From: Candidatus Omnitrophota bacterium
Lineage (GTDB): Bacteria > Omnitrophota > Gorgyraeia > 1-14-0-20-64-10
Assembly (NCBI GenBank): GCA_016177405.1
Contig: JACOVG010000024.1
Coordinates: forward strand, 7,079-71,078
DNA: 64,000 bases
Reading direction: 5' to 3'
Position numbers and translations under genes: made by a program. The notes beneath the pieces were generated by a model that was given only the letters and a program-made list of their open reading frames with translations, made no database searches and was not told where the DNA came from. Below, piece by piece: positions 36,813 to 61,751 of the stretch. The stretch's first letter is position 1, and each line of letters starts with the position of its first letter.

Positions 36813-36818
36813 CCCCGT

Positions 36819-41424: not shown

Positions 41425-41459
41425 TAATGCATAGATTTGGAAGGGAATTGTGAATCCCG

Positions 41460-46494: not shown

Positions 46495-46518
46495 CCGCCG
46501 GTTAAGAAGAACCGGCGG
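46495..46518 (+). other. Stable RNA hairpin in the gvpA 3' region (9-bp stem CCGCCGGTT/AACCGGCGG, loop aagaag) followed by a CCCCGGGG palindrome
   Basis: The hairpin is seen directly in the sequence. There is no U-tract, so it is not a classical intrinsic terminator. Confidence 0.4.
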
Positions 46519-46562: not shown

Positions 46563-47375
46563 ATGGGTTTCTCAGATGATATGAAAGAAACGTGTGAGAT
46601 GCTTGCCCAAAGCCGCTCGAATCGGGACAGGGCGATGAAGGAACTCCACAACGTTCACTCCAAGGACCGAATGGAGCGCAGGGCCACGATCAAGCGGACT
46701 GCCGGGGATGTCAAGCATCTCTTCAGCGATGTCCATGTGCTGATCCAGCATTTCCATGCCGACCGGGGGAAGATGAGCAAGGAGATGCAAGAAATGCTGG
46801 GGACCTTTTTTGAAAACACCCGGAAAGAAACTCAAGGAATCCTCAAGGAGGCCCGATCGTTCCTGAGGGGTTTCCGAGGGGAGCAAAGAAAGATGGCCGA
46901 GGAGCTGCACCAGATGCTGGAGGGGTATGCCCAGAGAATCCATAGGGATACCAACCGTTTCATGAAGGAGTTCCACTCCCAGTTTGAGGCAACGTGCGAA
47001 AAGGAAGGCGAGGAGCGGAAGACTTTCTTCAACGGAATCCGGCGTCAGGTCGGCGGCATTCGGCGTGATGTGGGCCAGATGCGGAAGGGTTTCCAAGAAG
47101 CTCAAAAGGCTCTTCATACCGATTTTCAGAAGGCGCAGGCATTCTGGAAGGAGTTTGACGGCGGTATGCGTCAGCCTAAGGCCATCCTAAAGGCGAAGGT
47201 TTCCGGTTTGCAGGCTCGCATCATGTCGACCCTGAAGGGTTCTCGGGAAGGGATGACGCTGAAGGAATTGAGCTATGCGATGGGCATGCCGGAGAAGAGC
47301 CTCAATCGCGTTTTGTCTCGGATGCGCCGGGAGAGGCATCTCCGCAAGCGCAAGAGCACCTTTTTTGCGCGATAA
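46563..47375 (+). CDS. Repetitive helical protein (GvpC-like candidate) with C-terminal winged-HTH
   Basis: The protein is 270 aa with a periodic K/E/R-rich pattern (..KE.H..F...) reminiscent of GvpC 33-aa repeats. The C-terminal stretch MTLKELSYAMGMPEKSLNRVLSRMRRERHLRKR is HTH-like. Confidence 0.45.
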   Translation: MGFSDDMKETCEMLAQSRSNRDRAMKELHNVHSKDRMERRATIKRTAGDVKHLFSDVHVLIQHFHADRGKMSKEMQEMLGTFFENTRKETQGILKEARSFLRGFRGEQRKMAEELHQMLEGYAQRIHRDTNRFMKEFHSQFEATCEKEGEERKTFFNGIRRQVGGIRRDVGQMRKGFQEAQKALHTDFQKAQAFWKEFDGGMRQPKAILKAKVSGLQARIMSTLKGSREGMTLKELSYAMGMPEKSLNRVLSRMRRERHLRKRKSTFFAR

Positions 47376-47452: not shown

Positions 47453-47644
47453 ATGGACGGGTTTGGGGAATCCTTCAAGGAACTTGAGCGAGACGAGCTT
47501 CATGAGGAACTCTTGAATCGTTTCCTGGATCTCTATTCTGTCTGGAGACGCACGGGAGAGGGGCGCCTGCTGGCGCTGGCGACAGAGGTGGCTAAGGATC
47601 TGGAATTGATTGACCCGGAATTTCACTTTGGGAAGGCGGCCTGA
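47453..47644 (+). CDS. Small hypothetical protein (63 aa)
   Basis: The ORF lies within the gas-vesicle cluster. No motif was recognised. Confidence 0.3.
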   Translation: MDGFGESFKELERDELHEELLNRFLDLYSVWRRTGEGRLLALATEVAKDLELIDPEFHFGKAA

Positions 47645-48081
47645 TGAAACGAGAAAGCCTGTTGAACTTAAAGACCTGTCGTGAGATTGTGACCGGGATG
47701 GACATTGCCAGGGGGAAGCGGTCCGCCCCAACGATGTTCCAGAAGATGCGCCGGATCGTCAGTCAGGGAACAGGAGAATTTACCCCGCATGTCAACGAAG
47801 CTACCCTGGCCGTTGAGATGGATAAAGAGCGCCGGCGATTCGGCCGGCGGTATCAAAAGGTGGAACGAGCCGCGGCCAAGATTTTAGGATTCCGTCGAAA
47901 ACTGGCCGCCACCCATGAGAAAAACCGGCGGATCATGGACTTGAGGATCGATCTACAGCGCCAGTACTGGGAAAACACCAGGCCGGCAGGTCTTAAGGCG
48001 CCCTGTTTGGCCGGAGCAGTCACCGAGGCAGAGGGACGAAGGATTAAAGTGCGACGTTTGCGCTACGGAGGGAGATCTTGA
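47644..48081 (+). CDS. Hypothetical protein (145 aa), basic
   Basis: The ORF is translationally coupled to neighbours within the gvp cluster. No motif was recognised. Confidence 0.35.
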   Translation: MKRESLLNLKTCREIVTGMDIARGKRSAPTMFQKMRRIVSQGTGEFTPHVNEATLAVEMDKERRRFGRRYQKVERAAAKILGFRRKLAATHEKNRRIMDLRIDLQRQYWENTRPAGLKAPCLAGAVTEAEGRRIKVRRLRYGGRS

Positions 48082-49019
48082 GGGAAACCGAGGTCGTCGA
48101 TTCGCCTGGCGGGGTTATGCTGGAGCCGGAACCTGGATTCGTGGAGACTCTGAACATTAAGCGCTTGACCGAACGGGCTCTTTCGTACTTGAAGGCCGGC
48201 TACCCGGTTCACTTCAGCGGCCCCGCCGGGGTGGGCAAGACCACGCTGGCGATGCATCTGGCCAGAACCTTAGGGCGCCCCGCTTGTTTTATGGTGGGTG
48301 ATGATGAGTTCGGCTCCTCGGACCTGGTGGGTGGCCAGTGCGGCTACCGACGCAAGAAGGTGGTGGATCGCTTCATTCATTCGGTCCTGAAGATGGAAGA
48401 TGATGTGACCTCTCGCTGGGTGGATGCGCGCCTTACCGAGGCCTGCAAGAATGGTCTCACCCTGATCTACGATGAATTCAACCGCTCCCGCCCTGAAGCC
48501 AACAACGTTCTTCTTTCCGTCTTGGAGGAAGGGGTAATGACCATGCCGCCGGCCAGCGGTGAAGCTAAAGAGGCGTATCTGGAGGTTCATCCCAGCTTCC
48601 GCGCCATCTTCACCTCTAACCCGGAGGAGTACGCCGGGGTCCATAAAACGCAGGATGCCCTTCGGGACCGGCTGGTGACGATTGAGCTTTTCCACTATGA
48701 TGAAGAGACGGAGATTGCCATCACGATGTCCCGGACGAAACTCACTCGACCAGAGGCGGCCAAGATCGTGAAACTGGTTCGTGCCATACGGCAGAAGGGC
48801 CCCTCCAAGGCGTCTCCCACCATCCGGGCCTGCATCATCATTGGCAAGGTGGCCAAGCTTCGCAAGGCCAGGATCGATCGCCGGGATGAGCGTTTTAGAG
48901 AGATCTGCGGGGACGTTTTGGCCTCAACGAATCACGCAGGGCGGAACGGTTCAGGGCTGAAACAGAAGCTGGGGCAGTCTCGACAGCTCGTTGAACGTCT
49001 TCTTCGCCGCCACTGCTAA
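48078..49019 (+). CDS. gvpN: Gas vesicle AAA+ ATPase GvpN (copy 1)
   Basis: The Walker A is GPAGVGKTT and the Walker B/sensor is LIYDEFNRSRPEANNVLLSVLEE. This is the CbbQ/NirQ/GvpN family. Confidence 0.85.
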   Translation: MRETEVVDSPGGVMLEPEPGFVETLNIKRLTERALSYLKAGYPVHFSGPAGVGKTTLAMHLARTLGRPACFMVGDDEFGSSDLVGGQCGYRRKKVVDRFIHSVLKMEDDVTSRWVDARLTEACKNGLTLIYDEFNRSRPEANNVLLSVLEEGVMTMPPASGEAKEAYLEVHPSFRAIFTSNPEEYAGVHKTQDALRDRLVTIELFHYDEETEIAITMSRTKLTRPEAAKIVKLVRAIRQKGPSKASPTIRACIIIGKVAKLRKARIDRRDERFREICGDVLASTNHAGRNGSGLKQKLGQSRQLVERLLRRHC

Positions 49020-49035: not shown

Positions 49036-49590
49036 ATGCCTAAGGAACCTAAGGAGAAGTCGAAGAAACCAGGGGGCGAGGAGCCTGTGGAGTTGGACTT
49101 TGGGTTGGGCAAGCTAAGCCTCGGCGGGCTCTTCAAGGGTTTGGGGCAGCTCGTTGACCTTGCCAGCACCCTTCAGGAAAAAGCCGGGGAGATCAAGAAG
49201 GAAGGGACTTTCAAGGCAGGCCAAGTCGGCGGAAAGGAGATCAAAGGGATCTACGGCTTCTCCATCCGGACTCTGGCAGGCGGCAAGCCGGTGGTGGAAA
49301 CCTTTGGGAATGTGGTCAAGAAGACTCCAAAAGGGCCCGTGGTGGAGGAGGTGCGGGAGCCGCTGACAGATCTGTTTGACGAAAAAGACCGGATCAAGAT
49401 CATCGCGGAGCTTCCGGGGGTAACCGAAGCCGAGGTTAAGACGGAGCTAAAAGGGGACATCCTGACGATTGCCAGCACCGGCGAAAAGAAGTACACCAAG
49501 GAGGTTCTTTTGCCGGCTAAGGTCAAGCCGGAGAGCCTTGAGGTCACTTACCGGAACGGTATCTTGGAGATCGAGCTGGAGAAGGCCTAA
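49036..49590 (+). CDS. Hsp20/alpha-crystallin family protein (GvpH-like)
   Basis: The C-terminal alpha-crystallin segment reads DLFDEKDRIKIIAELPGVTEAEVKTELKGDILTIAS...EVTYRNGILEIEL. Confidence 0.8.
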   Translation: MPKEPKEKSKKPGGEEPVELDFGLGKLSLGGLFKGLGQLVDLASTLQEKAGEIKKEGTFKAGQVGGKEIKGIYGFSIRTLAGGKPVVETFGNVVKKTPKGPVVEEVREPLTDLFDEKDRIKIIAELPGVTEAEVKTELKGDILTIASTGEKKYTKEVLLPAKVKPESLEVTYRNGILEIELEKA

Positions 49591-49657
49591 ATGGCGTTAG
49601 AAGCCCAAAATTTTTTTACTTGGAAGGTGCGAAAATGCACAGCACAAGCGAGCGACC

Positions 49658-51787
49658 ATGACCGAGCCGCGATCAACAGTTCGTGAACCGCGAACGCTGA
49701 CCGTCCGAGTGAAGGAGGCCCGGGCTCAAGATGTGGGGCGTGGAATTGCCCGGGTGGATCCGAAGGAGATGGAAAGGCTTGGGTGCGTCGTTGGAGACCT
49801 CGTCGAGTTGGAGGGCAAGCGCCATACGGTGGCCAAATTGATGCCGGCGTATCCGGAAGATCGAGGCCAAGGAATCATCCAGATCGACGGGCTTGTCCGA
49901 GACAACGCCAAGGTGGGCCTGGACGAGAAGATCAAGATCCAAAGGTGTGAATGGAAGCTGGCTGAAAAGATTGTCCTCGCCCCCCTGACCCTCACGCGCG
50001 CTTCATCTGGCGACGAGCGATACCTGGGATCTCTCCTGACTGGCCTGCCGCTTGTGGAAGGGGATCGCGTTCGCGCCACCTTGATCGGCACGCAAACCCG
50101 CGAATTCCAGGTCGCGGCGACCTTTCCTAAGGGAGTCGTGGTGATCCAGGCCTCCACGAAGGTTGAGCTGGAGTCCCGGGAGCCCACCGAGGCCGGTGAA
50201 GCGGTCAAGATCTCTTATGAGGACATCGGAGGCTTGGGTTCCCAGATCCAAAGGATTCGGGAAATGATCGAGCTTCCCTTGAGATACCCGGAGGTCTTCG
50301 AGCGGTTGGGGATCGAGCCGCCCAAAGGGGTGCTCCTTCATGGGCCGCCGGGTACCGGCAAGACCCTCATCGCACGGGCGGTCGCCAATGAAACGGAAGC
50401 TTATTTTACCCACATCAGCGGTCCGGAGATCATGGGCAAATTTTACGGGGAGTCTGAAGGGAGACTCCGGGCTGTCTTTGAGGAGGCCCAGGAACACGCC
50501 CCAGCCATTTTGTTCATTGACGAGATCGATGCCATCGCCCCCAAGCGGGAGGAGATGGGGGGTGAGCGCCAGGTGGAACGCCGGGTCGTGGCGCAGCTTT
50601 TGGCGTTGATGGATGGCTTGGAGTCCCGGGGCAAGCTCATCGTCATCGGGGCCACCAACCTACCCAATCTTCTGGATCCAGCCCTAAGGCGGCCCGGCCG
50701 GTTTGATCGGGAGATCGCCATCCCGATCCCGGATAAGAAGGCGCGTCTGGAGGTCCTCCAGATCCACACCCGCGGCATGCCTTTGGCCAAGGACGTGGAT
50801 CTGGAGAAGCTGTCCGCTATTACCCATGGTTTCGTTGGGGCGGATCTGGCCGCCCTGGCCCGAGAGGCGGCGATGGCCTGTTTAAGAGGACTGTTGCCTT
50901 CGATCAACTTCGATTTGTCCGAGATTCCCTATGAAACCCTCATGAAACTGGAGGTCACCCAGGAGCATTTCCTCTCCGCTCTTCGGGAGGTGGAGCCTTC
51001 CGCGATCCGGGAGGTGTTCGTGGAAACACCGGATGTCACCTGGGAGGATGTCGGTGGTTTGGAGGAAATGAAGGAGGAGCTCAAGAAGGCGGTGGAGTGG
51101 CCCTTGAGACATGAGGCCCTTTTCACGCAGGCGAAGGCCAGGCCCCCCAAGGGAATTTTGTTTCATGGTCCGCCGGGCACCGGGAAAACCCTCCTGGCCA
51201 AAGCGCTGGCTCATGAATCCCAAGTGAACTTCATTTCGGTCAAGGGGCCAGAGCTCATCAGCAAATTCGTTGGGGAGTCGGAGCGAGGAGTCCGGGAGGT
51301 CTTCAAAAAAGCCAAGCAGGCGGCCCCCACGATCCTGTTTTTCGATGAGATCGACTCCCTGGTTCCCCGGCGAGGGACAGGAGACTCTTCCATGGTCACC
51401 GAGCGGGTGATCAGCCAGTTCTTGACCGAGCTGGATGGGTTGGAGGAGCTCAAGGGGGTCCTGGTCTTGGCCGCCACCAATCGGATGGATCTGGTGGATC
51501 CAGCCCTTCTGCGTCCCGGGCGGTTCGATCTCATCTTGGAGATGCCGTTGCCGGATCTCAAGGCCAGGCAGGCGATCTTAAAGGTACACCTGAAGGCCAA
51601 GCCCTTAGGCAACGATGTGGACATCGGCTTGCTGGCCAAGCAGACCGAGGGAGCCAGCGGCGCCGAGATCGAAAACCTTTGCCGCCGAGCCGCCATGGAA
51701 GCGATTCGGGAATGCGTCGAATCGCAAAAGGGAGAGCCAAAGAGGTTGAAGATCGAGAGGAAGCACTTTGAAAATTCTCCTCATTGA
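49658..51787 (+). CDS. CDC48/VCP-like AAA+ ATPase (N-domain + two AAA modules)
   Basis: Two Walker A motifs (GPPGTGKTL twice) and two Walker B motifs (ILFIDEIDA and ILFFDEIDS) are present. The N-domain begins [22 protein letters not shown]. Confidence 0.88.
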
Positions 51788-52316
51788 GGCAGACCCCCTC
51801 TTGAGGGGTTTCTGGACGGAGGTTTTCAAGAAGGAGGGATTTCAAATTTCCTTAGCCGAGGATGAAACGCAGGCCCGTGAGCAGATAGACTTAAACGGCC
51901 CGGATCTTGTCTTTCTGGGCAGCAACATGGAAGGAGCTCATGGGGTCCACCTCATGACAGAGCTTAAGTCAGAACCCTTCGCCTTGGCCCAAGGTAAACT
52001 CCGCGACCTGATCGTTGTGGCTCCGCTGAATACCTCCAGCCTCCGCCAGAAGCTTCAGGCAGCCAGAGAGCAGGGGGCCGCGTTCCCTCGGATTGATGTG
52101 GAACGGATGACCTACGCCGTCAAGGAGGCGTTGGGTCTTCGAGAGGCCTCCCTCTTTGGCGATCTGTCCATCCATGAGATGGAACGCCAGATGATCGGGG
52201 AGGCATTAAAGCGTTCGAGAGGAAATCAGACACGGGCAGCCCGCCTTCTGGGGATTAGCCGATTTGCCCTTCGGAATCGACTGAAGAAATATCAGTTGGA
52301 GGAAGCACCACGATGA
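51768..52316 (+). CDS. Receiver-like domain + Fis-type HTH regulator
   Basis: The N-terminus [12 protein letters not shown] is receiver-like. The C-terminus [20 protein letters not shown] is a Fis-type HTH. Confidence 0.6.
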
Positions 52317-53344
52317 GCGGTCTCTACATTTACGGAATCATGCGGGAAGAGGACCTGGCAAGGGTTGATCCAGCGGCCCTTTTCCCTGAAAAGAAGATAT
52401 TGACGGTGGTCAAGGACAACTTTGGCGCTGTGGCCGTGTCGACCCAGGAGGAGATTTTTAGGGCGACTCAAGAAGGGCTTCTTGGCCACTTCGAGGTTCT
52501 CTCAAAGCTGATGAACGTGGGGCCGGTTTTTCCGATCCGGTTCGGAACGGTAGCCAAAACGGAAGAAGATGCGCGCCATCTCCTTGGCTCCCTCTTAAAT
52601 CTCATTGATCCAGTTCTCGATCACCTGAATGGGAAAGTGGAGTTCGACGTGGAGGCCCGCTGGAACCCCCAGGTGGCTTATTCCAAGATTGCCTTGGCCG
52701 ATCCAAAGATCAAGGCGTTTAAGGAGCGCGTCGCCAACCAGGGCACTCCGCCTTCGATGGGGGACCGTTTGGCCGTTGGGAAATTGGTGGCCGAGGCGGT
52801 CACAAACCAAGCGGAATTGTACCGCCAACAGATCAAGGAGGCACTTCGCGAGGTAGCCTTAGAGTCCGCACCGCTTCCGGTGGGGAGGGACAAGGATCTC
52901 TTTATGAACATGGCTTTTTTCGTTGGAGAGACGCAAACAGAAGCCTTCGAGAAGAAACTCTATTTCCTTGGGGAATCTTTCCAGGATGCCGTCCATTTCA
53001 AGTATGCAGGGCCCTTGCCCCCCTACAGCTTCACCGGCTGCGAAATTGCCGCGGTCACGCCGGCGATGCTGGAAGAAGTCAGGCAAACCCTGGGGTTGGG
53101 GGAAAGGTTTACCCGGGAGGAGTTTACCAACCAGTACCGGAGATTATCACTGGCTTGGCATCCCGACCGAAACGCGGGAGATCCCTCGGCTACCGAACGC
53201 TTCAAGCGGCTGTTGACAGCCGGAGCGCTTCTGGAGCGTTTCTTCGCGCAGTGCAAAGGGGAGTTTGTGAAGAGCGCCCTGCCGGACACGATCTTTCTTG
53301 TGGCAAAAGAGTTCGGCCGCAAGGAACATCTGGAATGGGCGTAA
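52313..53344 (+). CDS. GvpL/GvpF-family gas vesicle protein fused to a C-terminal J-domain
   Basis: The N-terminus [12 protein letters not shown] is a GvpL/F signature. The C-terminal YRRLSLAWHPDRNAGDPSATERFKRL carries the HPD J-domain motif. Confidence 0.75.
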   Translation: MSGLYIYGIMREEDLARVDPAALFPEKKILTVVKDNFGAVAVSTQEEIFRATQEGLLGHFEVLSKLMNVGPVFPIRFGTVAKTEEDARHLLGSLLNLIDPVLDHLNGKVEFDVEARWNPQVAYSKIALADPKIKAFKERVANQGTPPSMGDRLAVGKLVAEAVTNQAELYRQQIKEALREVALESAPLPVGRDKDLFMNMAFFVGETQTEAFEKKLYFLGESFQDAVHFKYAGPLPPYSFTGCEIAAVTPAMLEEVRQTLGLGERFTREEFTNQYRRLSLAWHPDRNAGDPSATERFKRLLTAGALLERFFAQCKGEFVKSALPDTIFLVAKEFGRKEHLEWA

Positions 53345-53346
53345 CC

Positions 53347-54102
53347 ATGAATGGAGAAGGGCGCTATCTCTATGGAATCATCGAGTCGGCCAAGCGGATC
53401 GAATTTGGGCCGGTGGGATTGCCGGGAGGCGATCCCATGGTCTACACGATACACCATCGGGACCTGGGCGCCTGCGTCAGCGGCTACCCTCCGCAAAGGG
53501 AGATCAGGGCGGATGCCGAGCACTGTCTGGCCCATGAGCGGGTTCTGGAGGCGATCATGCAGCGCTTCACCATCCTTCCCTTTGAGTTTGGGACCGTGGC
53601 GCCTACGGAGGCCGAGGTGGTGAAGCTTCTGTCTCGCCATCGAAACGGTATCAAGCTGGCTTTAAGGCGCCTCCATGGACGGGTGGAGGTGGGGGTGAAG
53701 GCCTTCTGGAAAAGTCTGCAAGCCGCCGCTTTAGAAGTGGCAAAGGAGCATACGGCGATTGCCCGCTATCGCCGGGAGATTGCCTCCAAGCCCCCGGAGG
53801 AGACCTACCAGGACCGGATTCAGCTCGGCGAGATGGTGGCCGTTGCGTTAGGCGAGAAGCGCAAGCGGGAAGCCAACAGTCTCGCGGGGACCCTGAAGCG
53901 AGTTGCAGCCGATGTAAGCCAGGGCGCCACTGTCGGAGACACGATGGTTTTAAATGCAGCCTTCTTAATTCGAAAGGCCGACTTCCCCAGATTTGAACAG
54001 ACCCTAAAGGCTTTGGGGAAACGCCTGGATGGACGGCTGGACTTCAAGTACAGCGGTCCGTTGCCCCCCTACAGTTTTACCGGGTTGAGTCTACGGGTGT
54101 GA
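53347..54102 (+). CDS. GvpF/GvpL-family gas vesicle protein
   Basis: The N-terminus is MNGEGRYLYGIIESAKRIEFGPVGL. The ATG 53347 is the internal start of ORF 53155..54102. Confidence 0.7.
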   Translation: MNGEGRYLYGIIESAKRIEFGPVGLPGGDPMVYTIHHRDLGACVSGYPPQREIRADAEHCLAHERVLEAIMQRFTILPFEFGTVAPTEAEVVKLLSRHRNGIKLALRRLHGRVEVGVKAFWKSLQAAALEVAKEHTAIARYRREIASKPPEETYQDRIQLGEMVAVALGEKRKREANSLAGTLKRVAADVSQGATVGDTMVLNAAFLIRKADFPRFEQTLKALGKRLDGRLDFKYSGPLPPYSFTGLSLRV

Positions 54103-54103
54103 G

Positions 54104-54889
54104 ATGAGAGCCAGCGGTAAGTACCTCTACTGTGTGATCCAAGCGGAGAAACCTCAAGAATTTGGGCCGCTGGGGATCGGGGGAAGGGAAGACCCCCTGA
54201 CCACGGTGCATTGGCAGAACTTGGCCTGTGTGGTGAGCGCCTCTGTTTTGGATGACTACCCGGTCAGCCGAGAATACACCATGGCGCATCATCGGGCCAT
54301 TGAAGCGGTACGCAAGCATTTCCCGGCCCTGCTGCCGGTTTGCTTTAACACCATTGCCAAGACAGAGCAATCCATCATTGAAAAGGTCCTTCGGCCAAGA
54401 TATCAGGAATTCCTGGACCTCCTCGATTGGGTCAAGGATAAGGATGAGATCGGCGTCAAAACCTACTGGCGGGCCCAGGAACCGGTTTTTAAGAAGATCC
54501 TGGAAGAGCAACCGGGGATTCGGGCTTTGAGGGATGAACTGGCGAAGCGTCCTCCGGCGGCCCGATATTACGAGCAGATCGATCTGGGCAAACAGATCGA
54601 GGCGGCCCTGAAGAGTTACCGGGAGCGGGAGGGAAGACGGGTCGTGGAGTTCCTTAAGATCCATGCGGCGGAGGCGCGGCAGGATCCGGTTTACGGTGAC
54701 AAATGGATCCTGAACGCATCCTTCCTTGTAAACAAGTCGAAGGTCGCGGAGTTCGTTCAGGCGCTCGAGACATTGGGCGCTCAATCGGACGGCAATCTGG
54801 TCTTCAAATACACCCCCGATGGTGCCCCGTTCCATTTTGTGGAGGTACGTATCACCTGGGGAGAGGAAGCCCATGTTCCTCATCGATGA
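54104..54889 (+). CDS. GvpF/GvpL-family gas vesicle protein
   Basis: The N-terminus is MRASGKYLYCVIQAEKPQEFGPLGIGG. Confidence 0.7.
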   Translation: MRASGKYLYCVIQAEKPQEFGPLGIGGREDPLTTVHWQNLACVVSASVLDDYPVSREYTMAHHRAIEAVRKHFPALLPVCFNTIAKTEQSIIEKVLRPRYQEFLDLLDWVKDKDEIGVKTYWRAQEPVFKKILEEQPGIRALRDELAKRPPAARYYEQIDLGKQIEAALKSYREREGRRVVEFLKIHAAEARQDPVYGDKWILNASFLVNKSKVAEFVQALETLGAQSDGNLVFKYTPDGAPFHFVEVRITWGEEAHVPHR

Positions 54890-55124
54890 CATCCTGATGT
54901 CTCCGGTGAACTTCACCGTCTGGCTTGCGGAGAGGGTCAAGGAGCAAGCCGAGAAGCAACTTTACGATGTGGAGGCCCTAAAGGCAGCCCTGGAGGAACT
55001 CCGGGAGCAGCACGATTCGGGTGAGTTGAGCAACCAGGAATTCGAACGAAGGGAAGACCGGCTCTTGAAAACCCTGCAGGAAGCCAGGGAGCGTCAAAAA
55101 GCCAAGACGGAAGGGGAGGTTTAG
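54873..55124 (+). CDS. gvpG: Gas vesicle protein GvpG
   Basis: The N-terminus MFLIDDILMSPVNFTVWLAERVKEQAEKQLYD, followed by a coiled coil, matches GvpG. Confidence 0.7.
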   Translation: MFLIDDILMSPVNFTVWLAERVKEQAEKQLYDVEALKAALEELREQHDSGELSNQEFERREDRLLKTLQEARERQKAKTEGEV

Positions 55125-55129
55125 GGCCG

Positions 55130-55933
55130 ATGGGAGAGCTTGTGCAGTTGTATGGGTTTGTGGAGTACGGGGGAGGGGATTTTCGATTCCCAGCCAGCCA
55201 TCTCTTTCTCATTCCATACCTGGACATTGCCTGCTTGGCCCGCCGCGTCTCCGAGGAAGAGTTTGCCCAAGGGGCGCTTCAAGAGCGTCTGAAAGATACG
55301 AAGTGGCTTAAGGTGCAGTTGATGGAGCAAGAAGAGGCCTTAGAACGGATCATGAAGGCCTGTACCGTTGTTCCGCTCAAATGGGGGGCTCTTTTTCGTA
55401 CGGTGGAGGCTGCCCAGGGGATGCTCAAGGAGCGCTACGAGACGGTTCGGGAATTGCTGAAGAAGCTTAAGGGTCGTGAGGAGTGGACGGTCCGGGCCTC
55501 CGTGGATCGAGGACGGTTGCAAGAGGCGGCTGCGCTTGAAGACCCTGAAATTCAGCGGCTTAGGGCGACCATCGAGAAGATGCCGCCGGGTACCGCGTAC
55601 CTGCTTACCGAGCGGCTGAAGCTCCTGACGGAAGAAGTTGGCCAGCGAACGATTGATGCGATGCTCCAAGAGTTCTTTGCTCATATGATGAGATACGCTG
55701 AAGCTTCGACAACTGCCGAGCCGGTCCGTGGCGCCGACGATCCGGAAGACAAGGAGCTGATCTTCCAGATGGCCTTCCTGGTGCCCCAGGAGAGGGTGCC
55801 TGGATTTACCCAAGCGGTCCTCCAGGAAGCGCGCCAGCGGCACGCCCAGGGCTTTGAGATTCAGCAGGTGGGCCCATTTCCGCCATACTACTTCTGCAAT
55901 TTGGAGCTTAAGGGAGCGCAAGCGCATGACTGA
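55130..55933 (+). CDS. GvpF/GvpL-family gas vesicle protein
   Basis: The N-terminus MGELVQLYGFVEYGGGDF is followed by a GvpF-like fold pattern. Confidence 0.65.
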   Translation: MGELVQLYGFVEYGGGDFRFPASHLFLIPYLDIACLARRVSEEEFAQGALQERLKDTKWLKVQLMEQEEALERIMKACTVVPLKWGALFRTVEAAQGMLKERYETVRELLKKLKGREEWTVRASVDRGRLQEAAALEDPEIQRLRATIEKMPPGTAYLLTERLKLLTEEVGQRTIDAMLQEFFAHMMRYAEASTTAEPVRGADDPEDKELIFQMAFLVPQERVPGFTQAVLQEARQRHAQGFEIQQVGPFPPYYFCNLELKGAQAHD

Positions 55934-56597
55934 AATTGCGGTCCAGATTCCGCAGGGAGTCCAGAGAAGGGCCACGTTGCTTGACCTGTTGGATCGGGTT
56001 TTGGGCAAGGGGGTGGTGGCCTACGGGGACATCGTGTTGTCCATTGCCGATCTGGATCTGGTGTATCTCAACCTGCGGGCGGTCCTTTCCTCCATCGGCG
56101 CGCTGGAGAGTAAAAACGGCGGATCGCGGTTCGTGGATGGCGGATCGAAGATTCCGGTTGTTTCCGATGGGGTCCCTGAACTTGCGGTGGAAGGCGAACG
56201 GAGGCAGACCCGTAGGTTTTTGGAGGAAGTCGAAACTCTAAGGGAGGCAGCCTCTCAACTCTTGCCGGCCGACGACACCCTTACAGACAGGCCTCTTTTG
56301 GGTGGAACATCTGCCCTCCCTGAAAGCCGCAAGGCAGGTAAGCTGGAGCTGAATCCGCAGAAAACGGCGCAGGGACTGGCGAAGCTGGCCATGACACTCA
56401 TCCATCTTCTGCGAAAGCTGATGGAACGGCAGGCCATTCGGCGAATGGAGGCGGGGACCCTTAACCCAGAGCAGTTGGAGCGGGCCGGTCAGGCCTTCCA
56501 GCAGTTGGACGATCAAATCAAAGAGCTTTGTAAGCAATTCGACCTCAAGGAGGAAGACCTGAATCTCGACCTTGGACCCTTGGGGAAGGTCGTTTAG
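55926..56597 (+). CDS. GvpJ-like (GvpA-fold) domain fused to GvpK
   Basis: The N-terminal LLDLLDRVLGKGVVAYGDIVLSIADLDLVYLNLRAVLSS is the GvpA/J fold. The C-terminal LAKLAMTLIHLLRKLMERQAIRRMEAGTLNPEQLERAG...DLNLDLGPLGKV matches the GvpK consensus. Confidence 0.7.
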   Translation: MTEIAVQIPQGVQRRATLLDLLDRVLGKGVVAYGDIVLSIADLDLVYLNLRAVLSSIGALESKNGGSRFVDGGSKIPVVSDGVPELAVEGERRQTRRFLEEVETLREAASQLLPADDTLTDRPLLGGTSALPESRKAGKLELNPQKTAQGLAKLAMTLIHLLRKLMERQAIRRMEAGTLNPEQLERAGQAFQQLDDQIKELCKQFDLKEEDLNLDLGPLGKVV

Positions 56598-56607
56598 GGA
56601 GGCACCT

Positions 56608-56925
56608 ATGGCAGAGCAAGAAGTGATCCATGCGTTGCAGCCGGCCGGCTTGGCCGACATCTTGGAGAGGGTCCTGGATAAAGGGGTCGTCATTGTCGGA
56701 GACATCAAGGTCAAGCTCGTTGATGTGGAGCTTCTGACCATCAAGATCCGGTTGCTCATCTCTTCGGTGGAACGGGCCAAAGAGATCGGGATCGACTGGT
56801 GGACATCCGATTTTGAGCTTTCCTCCAAGGCGAAACAACTCCATGAGGAGAACCGGCTGTTGCGGGATCGACTGGACCGGATTGAAGCAGCGCTTAAATC
56901 AACGGAAAGAAGGAAGGGCGGTTGA
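56608..56925 (+). CDS. GvpA-family minor gas vesicle protein (GvpJ/S/M-like)
   Basis: The segment LADILERVLDKGVVIVGDIKVKLVDVELLTIKIRLLISSVERAKEIGIDWW is the GvpA core fold. Confidence 0.7.
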   Translation: MAEQEVIHALQPAGLADILERVLDKGVVIVGDIKVKLVDVELLTIKIRLLISSVERAKEIGIDWWTSDFELSSKAKQLHEENRLLRDRLDRIEAALKSTERRKGG

Positions 56926-56954
56926 TCAAAAGTGAATGAGAGGAGGAAAAAACC

Positions 56955-57215
56955 ATGGCGGACATGATTGTGCTGGCGGAAAAAGCCAAGACAAAACTGG
57001 AGCGGGTGACAGGTCTGAAGGCCTCCAGTGTCATTGGGGTGGCCCAGGAGGAGGGGGGGCAATGGATGGTGACCCTGGAGTTGATCGAGAAAAAATCCAT
57101 TCCCGACTCCATGGACATCTTGGGTACGTATGAGGTCAAGATGGATGAAGCTGGCGACGTCCTCGACTTTGCGCGAACCAGGCTTCGCAAGCGGGGCGAT
57201 ACCATTGAGGCGTGA
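56955..57215 (+). CDS. GvpO-like gas vesicle protein
   Basis: The segment IPDSMDILGTYEVKMDEAGDVLDFARTRLRKRGD resembles the conserved GvpO C-terminal block. Confidence 0.5.
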   Translation: MADMIVLAEKAKTKLERVTGLKASSVIGVAQEEGGQWMVTLELIEKKSIPDSMDILGTYEVKMDEAGDVLDFARTRLRKRGDTIEA

Positions 57216-58150
57216 CGATGACCCAGACCAGTAACACAGAGTCCCAGAGCGTTCTCGAACCGATCGCTGATCCAGGTTTTGTTCTCACTCCCTATGTGAA
57301 ACAGTTGGCCGACTTTGCGTTGACGTATCTGAAGGCGGATCTACCGGTTCATTTCTCCGGTCCGGCCGGAACCGGCAAGACAGCGCTGGCCCTGTATGTG
57401 GCGGCTCAACGAAAGCGCCCCATTGTCCTGATGCACGGGGATGAGGAGTTCAAGACGGCTGACCTCGTGGGTGCCGAGTACGGCTTTCGGTTAAAAAGAA
57501 CACGAGATCAGTACATCCACTCCGTCACTAAGCTTGAGGAAGATGTGGTCAAGCGCTGGACGGACAATCGCCTGACCGTGGCCTGCAAGTACGGCTTTAC
57601 CCTCATTTACGATGAGTTTACCCGCTCTCGTCCGGAGGCCAACAATGTCTTGTTGGCCATCCTGGAGGAAAAGATGCTGGATTTGCCCCCGGCGGGCGGC
57701 GATGAGAATTACCTCCAGGTGCACCCGGAGTTCCGCGCGATCTTTGCCTCCAACCCCGCCGAGTATGCCGGTGTCTACACCGCTCAAGATGCCCTCCGGA
57801 ATCGCTTGGTGACCATTGATATGGGGTACTTCGATGAAGAAACCGAGGCGGCTATTGTCAAAAGCCGCGCGGGGATAACGGAGGCGGATGCGAAGAAAGT
57901 CGTGAAGCTCGTGCGGGCCTTCCGGAAGGAAGGGGAAGGAATCTACAAATATGCCCCAACGGTCCGAGAGGCAGTCAAGATTGCCCGGGCCCTGAAGGTG
58001 AGGAAGCTCAAGCCTTCCAAGAGGGATCCTTTTTTCCGCGTTGTTTGCCTCCATGTCTTGACGAACGAGGTGCATCCCGTGGATCTCAAGCAGACCAAGT
58101 CTACGAAGTGCGGGCAGCTTCTGTTCAAACTCATCAACCGATACGGGTAA
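57212..58150 (+). CDS. gvpN: Gas vesicle AAA+ ATPase GvpN (copy 2)
   Basis: The Walker A is GPAGTGKTA and the Walker B is LIYDEFTRSRPEANNVLLAILEE. This is a paralog of the 48078 copy. Confidence 0.85.
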   Translation: MTMTQTSNTESQSVLEPIADPGFVLTPYVKQLADFALTYLKADLPVHFSGPAGTGKTALALYVAAQRKRPIVLMHGDEEFKTADLVGAEYGFRLKRTRDQYIHSVTKLEEDVVKRWTDNRLTVACKYGFTLIYDEFTRSRPEANNVLLAILEEKMLDLPPAGGDENYLQVHPEFRAIFASNPAEYAGVYTAQDALRNRLVTIDMGYFDEETEAAIVKSRAGITEADAKKVVKLVRAFRKEGEGIYKYAPTVREAVKIARALKVRKLKPSKRDPFFRVVCLHVLTNEVHPVDLKQTKSTKCGQLLFKLINRYG

Positions 58151-58159
58151 GGGGAATCG

Positions 58160-58579
58160 ATGCGTTGGCGATCGGCGCGTTTAAGCCAGTACCTAAGCGA
58201 TGGGATTTTCTATAGGGAAGGGGTCGCCGTCCTCAAACGGGAAGAAGGACAAGCGACCATCCGTTGCGGCTTCTGCCAGGGAAACGGCCACTACTCCCGT
58301 GGGGCAACTTGTCCAAGCTGCAGCGGCCGAGGCACGCATGTGATGGTGGAACCTATTGTGCGCTGCGGTTACTGCCAAGGGGCAGGGAAGGCGGAGCTTC
58401 GCACCGGTACCACCTGTCCTTCTTGCCGCGGCCGAGGGGCCCACGCGGTGGTTGAGCCATTCGTCACTTGCTCAACTTGCCATGGGAATGGCCGCAAAGA
58501 CAGGAGCCGGCTTTCTTGCCATAGCTGTTCCGGCAAGGGGGTTGTCGCTGGTGTCGATGGCGAGAAAATAGGAGGCTGA
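58160..58579 (+). CDS. DnaJ-type zinc-finger repeat protein (six CxxCxGxG motifs)
   Basis: The six motifs are CGFCQGNG, CPSCSGRG, CGYCQGAG, CPSCRGRG, CSTCHGNG and CHSCSGKG. Confidence 0.6.
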   Translation: MRWRSARLSQYLSDGIFYREGVAVLKREEGQATIRCGFCQGNGHYSRGATCPSCSGRGTHVMVEPIVRCGYCQGAGKAELRTGTTCPSCRGRGAHAVVEPFVTCSTCHGNGRKDRSRLSCHSCSGKGVVAGVDGEKIGG

Positions 58580-58591: not shown

Positions 58592-58858
58592 TTGATGGAA
58601 AGCCAAGATCGAACGATTCCTTGCCCCATCTGTCAGAGGGCGAATCCTTTCTTTGACTCGCTGAATAGGCAAATCAATCAGACCAGGGCTGTCACGGATA
58701 AGGTTTACTTTGCCAGAAAACTCCTGGCGAAGGCGGAGGATGTTTTGGAGGAGCATGGCCAGGCGGGCGATCCCGCTGGAAAAGCTTGCCGAGCCGTTTT
58801 GAATCTTCGGAAACAGGCCGCCGAACTGATCCTAAAAGCCCAGAAGCTGGCCGATTAG
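58592..58858 (+). CDS. Small hypothetical protein (88 aa) with CPIC motif
   Basis: The ORF has a good coding pattern. No known domain was recognised. Confidence 0.3.
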   Translation: MMESQDRTIPCPICQRANPFFDSLNRQINQTRAVTDKVYFARKLLAKAEDVLEEHGQAGDPAGKACRAVLNLRKQAAELILKAQKLAD

Positions 58859-58950
58859 GTGACCCCACCACCTCATTCAATGAAACTCCGTTTCATGTTT
58901 CCTTCGGAAACATTTCGCTGCCGAAGGCAGCGAAAGAAGGAGGTGGTGGG

Positions 58951-59337
58951 GTGAGAGGCCTCCTCGTTCGGTGGGGAGTTAATTCCTTGGCCCTTCTTAT
59001 TGTCGTCCACACGGTCCGGGGAATCGAAGTCGCAAATCCCGTTGCGGTTGTCGTGGCGGCGCTTTTTCTGGGCATCCTCAACGCCTTCCTTCGGCCCGCC
59101 TTGATCCTGGTGACACTGCCGCTCAACCTCATTACGTTGGGCCTGTTCACCTTCCTCATCAACGGCTTTCTTCTCTGGCTGGTAGGGCAGGTGATCAAGG
59201 GCTTCACCGTGACGGGGTTCTGGCCGGCCGTGGCGGGATCGTTCCTCTTCAGCCTCATGAGCTTTCTGATCAGCATCCTGATCGACAAGAAGGGACGCCT
59301 TCAGGTCACCATCACGGAGCGGCAAGCCCCAGATTGA
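58951..59337 (+). CDS. Small polytopic membrane protein (DUF360/YvlD-like candidate)
   Basis: The GTG start has the RBS AAGGAGG 7 nt upstream. The protein has four TM segments (LALLIVVHTV..., AALFLGILNAFL..., ...). Confidence 0.5.
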   Translation: MRGLLVRWGVNSLALLIVVHTVRGIEVANPVAVVVAALFLGILNAFLRPALILVTLPLNLITLGLFTFLINGFLLWLVGQVIKGFTVTGFWPAVAGSFLFSLMSFLISILIDKKGRLQVTITERQAPD

Positions 59338-59375: not shown

Positions 59376-60734
59376 CTACCTCCTCAAGTGAGCCGGCAGG
59401 GTCTTAAGTTCCTCCCTGTATTTTGACACGGTCCGCCGGGCCACGGCGATCCCTTCCGCCTTCAGTTTCTCCGAGATCCCTTGATCTGTAAGCGGTTTCA
59501 AAGGATTCTCCTGCATAAGGACTTGCCGGACCTTCTCTTTGAGCTGGGACCTAAGGAACTCTTCTCCGCTTGCCGTCGAAACCTTCTTCGCGAACAGATC
59601 CTTTATGAGATGCAGCCCCCAAGGGGTTGCGATGTACTTTTCCGCGATCGCCCGGCTGACGGTCGATTCGTGGCAGCCCACCTTCCGGGCAAGTTCCTTG
59701 GCGGTCAGGGGCTTGAGGTATTCAGGGCCTTTCTCGAAAAACTCGGTCTGCTCCTTGAGGAGCGCTTCCGCGATCTTTTCCATGGTACGCCGTCGATCTT
59801 CAAGCGCTTTGACAAGCCCCAGGGCTTCTTGAAGCTTCTCCTTAAGCTTATCTGAAAGGGCGTCTTTTGTCTTTGGGCGCAGCAGCGATCGGTAATCGGT
59901 GCGAACCTTCAGCTTCGGCAGATAGCCATTCATGCACTCCACCTCAAATCGGTTGCCCGCCTTCTCCACGGACAGATCTGGCACCATCGGTTGCGCCGAG
60001 GTTCCGAACGCGCTTCCCGGCTTGGGGTCAAGCGTGCGGATCTCCTTCACCGCTTTCTGGATCAAATCCGCCGGTGCCTTGAGGCGCTTCGCGATTCGAT
60101 CAAAGCGATGCCCCGCCAGATCCTCGAAGTGATGGCCCACCAATTTCCAGGGCAGACTCCCTTCGCGCCCTTTTCTCTTCAGTTGGATCATGAGGCATTC
60201 CTGTAAATTCCGGGCCCCGACCCCAACCGGTTCGAGGGATTGGATAACCGCGAGCACCCGCGAGGCTTTTTCTTCTTTGATCCCAAGCTCCCGGGCGATT
60301 TCCCCGATGGAACTGGTCAGGTATCCATGGGTGTTAAGGTTCCCTATGATGATTTCACCGATTTGGAGTTCTTCAGGCGAGGAAATGCTTAGTTGAAGCT
60401 GTCTGGATAGTTCCTCGCGAAGGGAAGCTGGAGGGGCGGCTAAGGTAAGAAGATAATCGCGGCGTTCCTGGAGCGTTTCCGCAGCGGAGGGATCGGTTTC
60501 CCCTTGAATCCAGTCGTCCAGGGTGTCACCGAAGGGTTCCGCCATTTGCTCTAAAGAGAGTTCTCGTTCCGGAGACCCTTCGGCCTCCAGGAACGGATTC
60601 TCCGTCAAGACTTGGTCGATGAAGCCTTTGAGTTCCAGGATCGGTTTTTGGAGGATGGCGAGGGACAACTTGAGCTGCGGCGTCACCCGCAACTGTACGG
60701 AAGGTTTAACTTGAAGTTGGAGCCTTGGCTCCAT
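59376..60734 (-). CDS. rpoN: RNA polymerase sigma-54 factor
   Basis: The start was set at the internal Met (MEPRLQLQVKPSVQLRVTPQLKLSLAILQKP). The C-terminal RpoN box ARRTVSKYRE and the HTH are present. Upstream codons of ORF 59376..61637 are antisense to tkt. Confidence 0.92.
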   Translation of the reverse strand: MEPRLQLQVKPSVQLRVTPQLKLSLAILQKPILELKGFIDQVLTENPFLEAEGSPERELSLEQMAEPFGDTLDDWIQGETDPSAAETLQERRDYLLTLAAPPASLREELSRQLQLSISSPEELQIGEIIIGNLNTHGYLTSSIGEIARELGIKEEKASRVLAVIQSLEPVGVGARNLQECLMIQLKRKGREGSLPWKLVGHHFEDLAGHRFDRIAKRLKAPADLIQKAVKEIRTLDPKPGSAFGTSAQPMVPDLSVEKAGNRFEVECMNGYLPKLKVRTDYRSLLRPKTKDALSDKLKEKLQEALGLVKALEDRRRTMEKIAEALLKEQTEFFEKGPEYLKPLTAKELARKVGCHESTVSRAIAEKYIATPWGLHLIKDLFAKKVSTASGEEFLRSQLKEKVRQVLMQENPLKPLTDQGISEKLKAEGIAVARRTVSKYREELKTLPAHLRR

Positions 60735-60809
60735 TACAACCTCCAACGCTCTCCATACCAAAGTATACCACCCCTCACAGGTGAAAGGCACTCTTAAGGC
60801 TGCGTGGCA

Positions 60810-60875
60810 GCCCGCAACAGAAGGGAATTGACCGGCCTGAAAAAAATCGGTATCATCAAACTCATCATGCCGTTT
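60810..60875 (+). repeat. Direct repeat copy 2, the native tkt promoter (TTGACC 60828-33, TATCAT 60851-56) and start
   Basis: This stretch is identical to 41460-41525. It is followed by the intact transketolase N-terminal subunit gene. Confidence 0.75.
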
Positions 60876-61751
60876 GTGCCGCTTACCCTGCCTGAACTGC
60901 CCCGCATGGCCCTGGCGATCCGCAAGGAGGTCATCCGGATGCTGGGCCGTTCCGGTTCCGGCCATCCGGGGGGTTCCCTCTCCGAGGCCGACCTGCTGAC
61001 GTGCCTTTTCTTCCACCTGATGCGCCACGACCCGGCCAACCCTTCCTGGGAGGAGCGGGACCGCTTTGTCTTGAGCAAGGGCCATGGCTGTCCGGGCGTT
61101 TACGCGGCGATGGCCTTGGCCGGCTACTTTCCCAAGGAGGAGCTTCTGACCCTGCGCAGGCTGGGCTCCCGCCTGCAGGGCCACCCGGACACCCGGTTCC
61201 TGCCGATGCTGGAGGCCTGCACCGGATCGCTGGGGCAGGGGCTTTCCATCTCCTGCGGGATTGCCCTGGCCGCCAAGATGGACCGGAAGGATCACCGGGT
61301 CTACTGCCTGATGAGCGATGGAGAGACCCAGGAGGGACAGACCTGGGAGGCGGCGGCCTTTGCCGGCTTTCATGGCTTGGACCGGCTGATCGCCTTGGTG
61401 GACTACAACAAGTTTCAGTTGGACGGCAAGGTGGCCGACATCATGGACCTGGAGCCCCTGGCCAAGAAGTGGGAGTCGTTCCGCTGGCACGCGCAGGAGA
61501 TTGACGGGCACGACATCCTCAAGATTGTCCAGGCGGTCCGGCAGGCCCAGGCGGCGCCGGGCAAGCCCCATGTGATTTTGGCCCACACGGTGAAGGGCAA
61601 GGGGGTTTCCTTCATGGAGCACAACAACTACTTCCACGGCGTCACCCCGACGGCCGAGGAAACCGAGGCCGCCCTGAAGGAGCTGGACGGAGACCCCTCC
61701 CTCTCGAAGGCGCTCGTCGCCGCCGGCAAGATCAAAATGGGCGGCAAATGA
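60867..61751 (+). CDS. tkt: Transketolase, N-terminal (TPP-binding) subunit
   Basis: The motifs GHPGGSLSEADLL, DRFVLSKGHG and the TPP-binding GDG...N are present. This is the split-tkt arrangement. Confidence 0.9.
   Translation: MPFVPLTLPELPRMALAIRKEVIRMLGRSGSGHPGGSLSEADLLTCLFFHLMRHDPANPSWEERDRFVLSKGHGCPGVYAAMALAGYFPKEELLTLRRLGSRLQGHPDTRFLPMLEACTGSLGQGLSISCGIALAAKMDRKDHRVYCLMSDGETQEGQTWEAAAFAGFHGLDRLIALVDYNKFQLDGKVADIMDLEPLAKKWESFRWHAQEIDGHDILKIVQAVRQAQAAPGKPHVILAHTVKGKGVSFMEHNNYFHGVTPTAEETEAALKELDGDPSLSKALVAAGKIKMGGK

Follow-up and report, generated by a model that had tools for sequence, protein, structure and literature searches.

Gas vesicle (gvp) gene clusters have been described from Halobacterium (gvpACNO/DEFGHIJKLM), Anabaena, Bacillus megaterium, Serratia, and Streptomyces. 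The major shell protein that they encode, GvpA, is extremely hydrophobic and aggregation-prone. Here, we analyze a gvp cluster in 64,000 nucleotides of a Candidatus Omnitrophota genome assembled from a metagenome (GenBank assembly GCA_016177405.1, contig JACOVG010000024.1, positions 7,079 to 71,078 of the forward strand). This whole 64-kb stretch is called the window below, and coordinates given without a locus number refer to it. The cluster, at ~45.8 to 58.9 kb, resembles the canonical clusters in its GvpA, GvpN, GvpF/L, GvpG, GvpJ-type, GvpK, and GvpO proteins, and the alpha-crystallin-type protein that it encodes has also been noted in canonical clusters before, as Hsp20 or GvpH. It differs from them by a J-domain on a GvpF protein (a fusion that we call GvpF-J), an unfoldase of the Cdc48/VAT type (CDC48 below), and a protein built of CxxCxGxG motifs, to which related clusters add an Hsp70. 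We know of none of these four components in the model gvp clusters. On balance, we think it likely that the chaperone-type proteins of the cluster form a module dedicated to GvpA-family shell proteins, a proposal that is built on gene content, gene order, and predicted protein structure.

Hsp20 genes and ArsA-like two-domain ATPases have already been reported in gvp clusters (PMC2963123, PMC7325909). The ArsA/Get3-like ATPases found there with Hsp20 are an earlier case of extra ATPase and chaperone genes in this setting (PMC2963123); the window has no ArsA, whereas several clusters with GvpF-J do carry it. The first of these studies makes no mention of J-domains, CDC48, zinc finger proteins, or Hsp70 (PMC2963123), and the authors of the second took the presence of hsp20 near gvp genes as a link to heat shock (PMC7325909). 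Full-text searches of the accessible literature, which leaves out subscription journals, turned up these Hsp20 and ArsA associations only and no paper in which a J-domain GvpF, CDC48, a CxxCxGxG protein, or an Hsp70 encoded in the cluster is connected with gas vesicles. In that literature, the class of gvp clusters defined by these components is undescribed, and the window holds one member of it.

Outside gas vesicle biology, an HPD-containing J-domain attached to a client- or lattice-specific domain is known from HscB, which is encoded in the isc operon and acts with HscA on IscU, and from auxilin, which acts with Hsc70 on clathrin. GvpF-J shares this arrangement, but its predicted client domain is GvpF and the window cluster has no Hsp70. 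The logic of disaggregation by ClpB/Hsp104, in which aggregates are kept tractable by a small heat shock protein (sHsp), Hsp70 is directed to them by a J-protein, and polypeptides are pulled out by a threading AAA+ motor with two rings, is also recognizable as a functional analogy only, as the motor in the window is of the Cdc48/VAT type with an N domain and lacks the ClpB middle domain that couples to Hsp70. CxxCxGxG zinc-knuckle units outside DnaJ occur in Bacillus Anti-TRAP (RtpA) and in plant BSD2. BSD2 is an assembly chaperone of Rubisco and is a precedent for a stand-alone CxxCxGxG protein as a dedicated assembly chaperone; in contrast to both proteins, the one in the window has three tandem units, with six motifs, and a conserved N-terminus. 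In archaea, Hsp20 and Cdc48 form a heat shock pair or operon (PMC5852551, PMC12974425), as in the Phr/HSR1 regulon and the Nitrosopumilus Nmar_0010/0011 operon. The same two-gene combination is present in the window, but there the pair is bacterial, lies inside a gvp operon, and is apparently under sigma-54 control instead of that of a heat shock regulator.

Results

The initial annotation of the window placed four chaperone-type genes inside its gvp operon: an Hsp20 (49036 to 49590, 184 amino acids), CDC48 (49658 to 51787, 709 amino acids), GvpF-J (52313 to 53344, 343 amino acids), and a zinc finger protein (58160 to 58579, 139 amino acids). The positions and lengths of all four were confirmed, and each protein scored above the curated Pfam cutoff for its family. 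Their gvp context also held up. They lie in a run of 20 genes, all on the + strand between ~45.8 and 58.9 kb, in which neighboring genes overlap or are separated by at most 110 nucleotides (nt).

GvpF-J combines a GvpF protein with a canonical J-domain. In Pfam searches, residues 3 to 241 matched GvpL_GvpF (PF06386) with 157.3 bits, and residues 259 to 307 matched DnaJ (PF00226) with 43.6 bits against a cutoff of 27.8. The peptide WHPDRNAGDPSATERFKRL, given in the initial annotation for a GvpL/F paralog ending in a true J-domain, is present, and the HPD motif (H283-P284-D285) is encoded at 53159 to 53167. J-proteins that activate the Hsp70 ATPase are characterized by this motif. In an AlphaFold2 model of the protein (predicted local distance difference test score [pLDDT], 89.3; predicted template modeling score, 0.81), the J-domain extends over about residues 250 to 313 (53060 to 53251, + strand) and consists of helices I to III at residues 250 to 259, 268 to 281, and 293 to 313, with the HPD motif in the loop that connects helix II to helix III. 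No helix IV is evident, and helix III is followed by a conserved beta-strand tail at residues 327 to 332. Foldseek matched the N-terminal 240 residues to crystal structures of GvpF (4qsg and 6l5d; E value of ~1e−15, target-normalized template modeling scores of 0.76 to 0.79) and superposed the J-domain on that of Escherichia coli DnaJ bound to DnaK (5nro_B) with a root mean square deviation of 1.4 Å over 52 columns. GvpL_GvpF is the sole other Pfam domain of the protein, and the chain contains neither a G/F region nor a zinc finger, which is the layout of a class C (type III) J-protein. GvpF-J scored below the NCBIfam equivalog cutoffs for both cyanobacterial GvpF and GvpL and therefore represents a distinct subfamily. 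An NCBI entry from a metagenome-assembled genome of Candidatus Omnitrophica has the same amino acid sequence (100% identity).

Degeneration of the HPD motif among orthologs, which the initial annotation had named as evidence that would refute its proposal of a gas vesicle chaperone set, was not found. The motif is invariant in all 20 aligned homologs, at identities down to 25%, and it is retained in 82 of the 83 fusion open reading frames (ORFs) recovered from genome loci, where in all but a few it lies 42 residues past the GvpF motif GPxPxYxF.

Fusions of this kind are widespread. A search of 5.8 billion proteins returned 24 cluster representatives (90% identity) that contain both PF06386 and PF00226, with identities down to 27%, and the best 150 of 1.84 billion representatives (50% identity) in a profile search were without exception full-length fusions, with scores of 269 bits or more. 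Gene context was surveyed in 80 loci, from one genome per GTDB species, that were ranked by similarity to GvpF-J, so that the resulting frequencies describe clusters with GvpF-J and not gvp clusters at large. Genes were called as stop-to-stop ORFs and identified by phmmer with the window proteins as queries and by a regular expression for the zinc finger repeats; the counts are approximate, and truncated loci undercount. GvpF-J is present in 78 of the 80 loci, which carry more than 12 phylum labels. Among these are Chloroflexota (Dehalococcoidia, Anaerolineae, Dictyobacter, Ktedonobacter, and Oscillochloris), Planctomycetota, Omnitrophota, Nitrospirota, Actinomycetota, Alpha-, Gamma-, and "Delta"-proteobacteria, Bacteroidota, KSB1, Aerophobota, Auribacterota, Elusimicrobiota, and others. 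The sole GvpF-J with an archaeal label (L012, Candidatus Methanoperedens) is on a 3.6-kb contig, and its J-domain is almost the same as the one in L013, a bacterial genome that was assembled in another project. The label is probably a binning or labeling error rather than an archaeal instance. In databases, the proteins of the module carry generic names, such as "GvpL/GvpF family," "DnaJ-domain-containing protein," and "CDC48 family AAA ATPase."

Co-occurrence of the genes in related genomes, which the initial annotation had proposed as a check, was borne out. Among the 28 complete loci, defined as those with at least 8 kb on each side of GvpF-J, CDC48 is encoded in 25, an Hsp20 of the window's type in 21, a zinc finger protein with at least three CxxCxGxG motifs in 19, and Hsp70 in 13; every one of the 28 encodes CDC48 or Hsp70. 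Gene order varies between lineages. GvpN-Hsp20-CDC48-regulator-GvpF-J is the order of the window type. Chloroflexia and Alphaproteobacteria have GvpJ-(zinc finger)-CDC48-GvpF-J, Planctomycetota and Dehalococcoidia have GvpK-Hsp70-Hsp20-CDC48, and some Anaerolineales have Hsp20-Hsp70-GvpF-J. That the genes remain together although their order has been rearranged between lineages is the expected outcome of a functional coupling among them.

Cultured bacteria are among the carriers. The genomes of Dictyobacter and Oscillochloris encode GvpF-J together with CDC48, and Octadecabacter arcticus 238, which is gas-vacuolate, encodes a GvpF-J with an intact HPD motif and an Hsp20 in a plasmid-borne gvp cluster. 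In the paper on the Octadecabacter genome, the gvp genes are listed without mention of the J-domain. A match on a Streptomyces plasmid (H1) was rejected as a carrier of the fusion, as it belongs to a classical actinomycete cluster and has no J-domain. Many clusters with GvpF-J also contain a two-domain ArsA/Get3-like ATPase of ~650 amino acids (PF02374, 450 to 483 bits), for example at 8257 to 10287 in L005, 13461 to 15422 in L033, and 13988 to 16024 in L068.

No Hsp70 gene is present in the 64-kb window. The proposal that the J-domain recruits Hsp70 is strengthened by the related loci, in 22 of which an Hsp70 is encoded in the cluster in the same direction as GvpF-J (22 of the 23 loci with an Hsp70); in the window organism, the partner would presumably be the DnaK of the host. 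In three loci, the Hsp70 gene is directly upstream of GvpF-J. The scores of in-cluster Hsp70 proteins on the DnaK equivalog model, which has a cutoff of 822.55, range from 876 bits for a near-canonical protein down to 717, 676, and 636 bits. Because these lower scores fall under the cutoff, several of the in-cluster proteins are diverged DnaK paralogs. Divergence is often seen in Hsp70 genes inside gvp clusters, such as those of L029 (15626 to 17158), L005, L066, and L074, and the 511-residue L029 protein ends at position 504 of the 599 in the Pfam HSP70 profile, so that it lacks the helical lid. The Hsp70 beside the L001 cluster was rejected as a dedicated partner and was not counted, since its gene is on the opposite strand and encodes a canonical DnaK that may have a housekeeping role. 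No GrpE or other nucleotide exchange factor was seen beside those in-cluster Hsp70 genes that were inspected, although no systematic search was made. By analogy with HscB and HscA of the isc operon, this arrangement suggests that the in-cluster Hsp70 is the natural partner of the J-domain in the relatives.

CDC48 has the complete architecture of its family. Pfam identified an N domain (CDC48_N, 99.4 bits; CDC48_2, 38.5 bits) followed by two AAA modules, along with two lid domains, and the protein scored 955 bits on NCBIfam TIGR01243 (cutoff, 802.65). Its closest solved structure is the Thermoplasma VAT ATPase (5g4f, 755 bits), which ranks above p97. Both rings have the Walker A sequence GPPGTGKT and the Walker B sequence DEID, and their pore loops read KFYG (D1) and KFVG (D2); 48 gvp-linked homologs keep both Walker motifs as well as the aromatic pore loops. 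The HbYX motif, which serves for docking to the 20S proteasome, is a feature of proteasome-coupled archaeal Cdc48 and not of the whole family. The window protein, which ends in ENSPH, has no HbYX motif, and no C-terminal tripeptide is conserved among the 48 homologs. Because its Walker motifs are intact, its pore loops aromatic, and its C-terminus free of an HbYX tail, CDC48 looks like an active stand-alone unfoldase.

Linkage of CDC48 to gas vesicle genes was evident from both directions. A full-length CDC48 gene is on the same strand as GvpF-J in all 48 loci that contain it, and in 36 of these loci the two genes are no more than 600 bp apart. We therefore set aside the concern that it is an independent insertion into the window cluster. 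Pairwise identities among the 48 CDC48 proteins track those of the corresponding GvpF-J proteins (r = 0.89). As a check, four CDC48 homologs of ~70% identity were picked solely for the length of their contigs. All four proved to be in gvp clusters, each in the order GvpN-Hsp20-CDC48. Three of these clusters, of a Dehalococcoidales type, have the Hsp20-CDC48 pair and no J-domain GvpF, which indicates that the pair belongs to gvp clusters independently of GvpF-J.

The Hsp20 has an alpha-crystallin domain at residues 115 to 183 (PF00011, 27.9 bits; cutoff, 20.8) behind a family-specific N-terminal region. Its best named family is the NCBIfam "archaeal heat shock protein Hsp20" (NF041800), on which it scored 139.4 bits against a cutoff of 140. 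The label GvpH-like, given to it in the initial annotation, was not upheld, as its score on PF05455 (17.4 bits) is under the cutoff of 22. Of the 44 loci in which this could be assessed, 19 have an Hsp20 match directly upstream of CDC48, and an Hsp20 gene has the same position in L086, L088, and L089. With the arrangement true of only 19 loci and two main architectures among the clusters, the idea of an obligate gene pair, with Hsp20 always immediately upstream of CDC48, was given up. Where it occurs, the pair matches the Hsp20-Cdc48 heat shock pair of archaea and, from sequence, appears to have been co-opted into the gvp cluster; we infer an archaeal origin for both proteins from their archaeal affinities.

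The zinc finger protein contains exactly six CxxCxGxG motifs and matched PF00684 with 41.1 bits (cutoff, 32.7). It also matched the Anti-TRAP family of Pfam (33.6 bits; cutoff, 32), while its score on NCBIfam RtpA (48.8 bits) is under the cutoff of 65. After a conserved N-terminus of 30 residues, the chain is made of three tandem units of ~34 amino acids, each with two motifs. All 12 cysteines are invariant in eight homologs, and the protein matched the structure of the DnaJ zinc finger (1exk) with an E value of 1.4e−5. An AlphaFold2 model built from eight sequences had a pLDDT of 44.9 and was unusable for zinc topology. Proteins with at least three CxxCxGxG motifs are encoded in 49 of 82 related loci. 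The initial annotation had interpreted GvpF-J and this protein as a disassembled DnaJ. This interpretation was not supported, since the zinc finger protein is made of Anti-TRAP-like units rather than of the four-repeat domain that is inserted in the C-terminal domain of DnaJ and since it is absent from 9 of the 28 complete loci. Neither a DnaJ C-terminal domain nor a J-domain was found in it by Pfam, and its scores on the NCBIfam models of full DnaJ are far under their cutoffs. The disassembled DnaJ is a loose analogy only.

The remaining genes of the cluster, all on the + strand, provide the gvp core. Pfam searches found gvpA, gvpN, gvpF/L, gvpG, a gvpJ type, gvpK, and gvpO together on the single strand and, as read from its genes, the gas vesicle cluster is complete. 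The first gene (45829 to 46206) encodes a single-domain response regulator (PF00072, 93.9 bits), as does the first gene of the clusters in L001, L002, and L087. It is followed by the gene for the 69-residue major shell protein GvpA (46244 to 46453; PF00741, 60.2 bits). Just 3' of the gvpA stop codon, at 46495 to 46518, is a perfect 9-bp hairpin (CCGCCGGTT-aagaag-AACCGGCGG) with no T-run, which could be an attenuator or an RNA stability element and could thereby increase the amount of GvpA relative to the accessory proteins. No protein of the cluster matched the Pfam profile for GvpC. The gene directly after gvpA (46563 to 47375) encodes a helical protein of 270 amino acids that is apolipoprotein-like with a weak winged-helix C-terminus, all of these being subthreshold Pfam matches, and its homologs come after gvpA in at least 11 related loci. 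Because it occupies the place expected for GvpC, it may be a GvpC analog. Two small ORFs without a Pfam match come next, one of 63 amino acids (47453 to 47644) and one of 145 amino acids (47644 to 48081), the latter also kept in L001 and L002.

A first copy of GvpN, a MoxR-like AAA+ protein (48078 to 49019; AAA_5, 75.4 bits), precedes Hsp20 and CDC48. The gene between CDC48 and GvpF-J (51768 to 52316) overlaps both of them and encodes a cut-down NtrC with a partial receiver (PF00072, profile positions 1 to 68 only) and a Fis-type helix-turn-helix (PF02954). Pfam found no sigma-54 AAA module in this protein, and by inspection of the sequence the usual phospho-acceptor Asp of the receiver is replaced; in L001 and L087, the same slot holds a full-length NtrC of 464 amino acids. 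Downstream of GvpF-J are two GvpF/L paralogs (53347 to 54102 and 54104 to 54889; PF06386, 210 and 183 bits), GvpG (54819 to 55124; PF05120, 75.7 bits), and a fourth GvpF/L paralog (55130 to 55933; PF06386, 148.9 bits). A 223-residue protein that fuses a GvpA-like (GvpJ-type) domain to GvpK (55926 to 56597; PF00741, 48.7 bits; PF05121, 108.4 bits) has counterparts in L001 and L087. It is followed by a GvpA-like minor shell protein of the J/M/S type (56572 to 56925; PF00741, 56.4 bits), GvpO (56955 to 57215; PF05800, 70.5 bits), and a second GvpN (57212 to 58150; AAA_5, 53.6 bits). The two GvpN copies are paralogous, at about 321 bits to each other, and GvpN is also duplicated in L001, L017, L023, L033, L042, and L087. 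An 88-residue ORF behind the zinc finger gene (58592 to 58858) has no Pfam match and is probably the last gene of the cluster; it has homologs in L001, L030, L037, L040, L041, and L045.

Genes for sigma-54-dependent regulation flank the cluster. Upstream, Pfam identified a hybrid histidine kinase (41854 to 43152), an NtrC-type sigma-54 activator (42920 to 44548), and a response regulator (44553 to 44921), all on the + strand, and the same set of three precedes the homologous cluster in L087. Just downstream, rpoN (59376 to 60720, − strand) is convergent with the cluster; the Sigma54 AID, CBD, and DBD domains are on residues 308 to 753 of the ORF at 59376 to 61637. A sigma-54-type promoter-like site on the + strand, TGGCATggctaTTGCT (TGGCAT-N5-TTGCT), is at 45766 to 45781, and the first cluster gene begins 48 nt downstream of it. 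It is the sole match to TGGCAC-N5-TTGCW with one mismatch in the window; the pattern shows no enrichment over the window as a whole, and only the position of this site is suggestive. Between 45.0 and 59.8 kb, promoter- and terminator-like sites are fewer than in shuffled sequence, with no sign of an internal transcription unit. It is plausible that the whole cluster is one sigma-54-dependent operon.

Several other features of the window were recorded. A four-transmembrane protein of the "phage holin 4_2" family (58786 to 59337, 100 bits) is encoded between the last cluster gene and rpoN. The stretch from 36000 to 42000 has a G+C content of 0.54 to 0.55, compared to 0.58 to 0.66 elsewhere in the window, and encodes an HNH_2 endonuclease-domain protein (37434 to 38987) and a PLD-like protein (39138 to 40667); it may be a small defense or mobile island adjoining the cluster. 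Two very long ORFs, at 2825 to 7624 (1,600 amino acids) and 20183 to 22870 (896 amino acids), have no Pfam match at an E value of ≤1e−5. From 24000 to 34000, the + strand has a strong positive AT skew (up to 0.30), and the − strand encodes complex I-type membrane subunits, for example, Proton_antipo_M at 26733 to 28664.

Discussion

The idea of a dedicated chaperone module finds good support in the comparisons between loci. We favor a model in which the chaperone-type proteins of the cluster act on GvpA-family shell proteins during vesicle assembly and quality control. As published work on GvpF from other organisms would predict, the GvpF domain of GvpF-J would bind these shell proteins or the nascent vesicle. 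The canonical HPD J-domain that is rigidly fused to it would trigger ATP hydrolysis by Hsp70 and clamp Hsp70 on hydrophobic segments of the bound Gvp client. The Hsp70 would be a DnaK encoded outside the window and, in many relatives, the dedicated DnaK paralog of the cluster. Hsp20 and the CxxCxGxG protein would be ATP-independent holdases that keep GvpA-type proteins recoverable, and the Cdc48/VAT hexamer would thread and unfold shell protein that is mis-assembled or aggregated, or the shell of collapsed vesicles, and return the protein to assembly.

A number of observations weigh against this model. With no Hsp70 gene in the window, the partner of the J-domain is assumed, and the Hsp70 near L001, the closest architectural relative, is the canonical DnaK on the opposite strand. 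The zinc finger protein is missing from about a third of the complete loci (9 of 28). Because the three Dehalococcoidales-type clusters have Hsp20-CDC48 without a J-domain, the parts need not act as one machine. To our knowledge, Halobacterium, Anabaena, B. megaterium, and Serratia make their vesicles from clusters that encode no protein of the module. The Octadecabacter cluster has no CDC48, zinc finger protein, or Hsp70 and yet makes vesicles, and the Streptomyces plasmid cluster, in the stretch examined, has no J-domain GvpF, CDC48, zinc finger protein, or Hsp70. Since the model clusters and Octadecabacter make vesicles without all or most of the parts, the module is accessory or lineage-specific and not universally required. 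The sample of loci is, in addition, biased towards clusters that contain GvpF-J, and the linkage data fit assembly, quality control, and disassembly alike.

The last point bears on the main rival proposal, that the module is a machine for disassembly or turnover in which GvpF-J on the finished shell recruits Hsp70, in the way of auxilin on a clathrin coat, and CDC48 extracts GvpA, so that vesicles are removed to change buoyancy or their protein is recycled. Linkage fits this proposal equally well, CDC48 is usually the immediate neighbor of GvpF-J, and the VAT-type aromatic pore loops in both of its rings are those of a processive unfoldase. However, the cluster encodes no protease or proteasome partner, and CDC48 has no HbYX tail. 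The genes of the module stand among assembly genes and are apparently co-transcribed with gvpA, so that their products would be made while vesicles are being built, and partners of the holdase type, such as Hsp20 and the zinc finger protein, are better suited to protecting unassembled subunits. We consider a role in disassembly unlikely.

The close linkage of CDC48 could also mean that the J-domain mainly serves the neighboring CDC48, for instance as an adaptor for its N-domain, and that Hsp70 is not the key partner in clusters without an Hsp70 of their own. The window, with CDC48 and no Hsp70, fits this description, as does the contrast between CDC48 within 600 bp in 36 of 48 loci and an in-cluster Hsp70 in 13 of 28 complete loci. 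The structure and conservation of the J-domain point the other way: it superposes on a J-domain bound to DnaK, and the Hsp70-activating HPD is kept in all but one of 83 copies. Moreover, the two proteins occur apart, GvpF-J without CDC48 in Octadecabacter and CDC48 without a J-domain in three clusters, and in three loci the gene immediately upstream of GvpF-J is that of an Hsp70. This explanation is improbable in our judgment. An explanation by generic stress genes that happen to be in or next to a gvp cluster, with no role specific to gas vesicles, is very improbable. It draws on the standing of Hsp20 and Cdc48 as general heat shock proteins of archaea (PMC5852551, PMC12974425) and on the earlier reading of hsp20 near gvp genes (PMC7325909), but it does not account for a J-domain that is physically fused to GvpF, for a linkage that persists over more than 12 phylum labels although gene order has changed, for the gvp context of all four CDC48 homologs picked for long contigs alone, or for the overlaps between neighboring genes in the window cluster.

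The module bears on how GvpA stays soluble and enters the growing gas-filled shell and whether collapsed vesicles can be recycled. A GvpF that carries a conserved Hsp70-activating domain makes the chaperone question directly testable, as do the neighboring genes for the unfoldase, the holdases, and, in relatives, a private Hsp70. The module would also be another client-dedicated J-protein/Hsp70 system beside HscB/HscA and a clear physiological setting for Cdc48/VAT-type ATPases in bacteria. Proteotoxic stress limits the heterologous expression of gas vesicles as ultrasound reporters (PMC12848028), and cluster-encoded chaperones are obvious parts to try in such expression systems. More tentatively, and with some doubt, we suggest that the gvp clusters of mostly uncultured bacteria encode a complete ATP-driven proteostasis machine that delivers, proofreads, or recycles GvpA at the growing shell. 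Its parts would be GvpF-J as the targeting factor, often a private Hsp70, a Cdc48/VAT unfoldase and sHsp that possibly derive from the archaeal heat shock response, and CxxCxGxG holdases. If this is true, it would provide a physiological role for Cdc48-type unfoldases in bacteria and identify the missing chaperone step of gas vesicle assembly.

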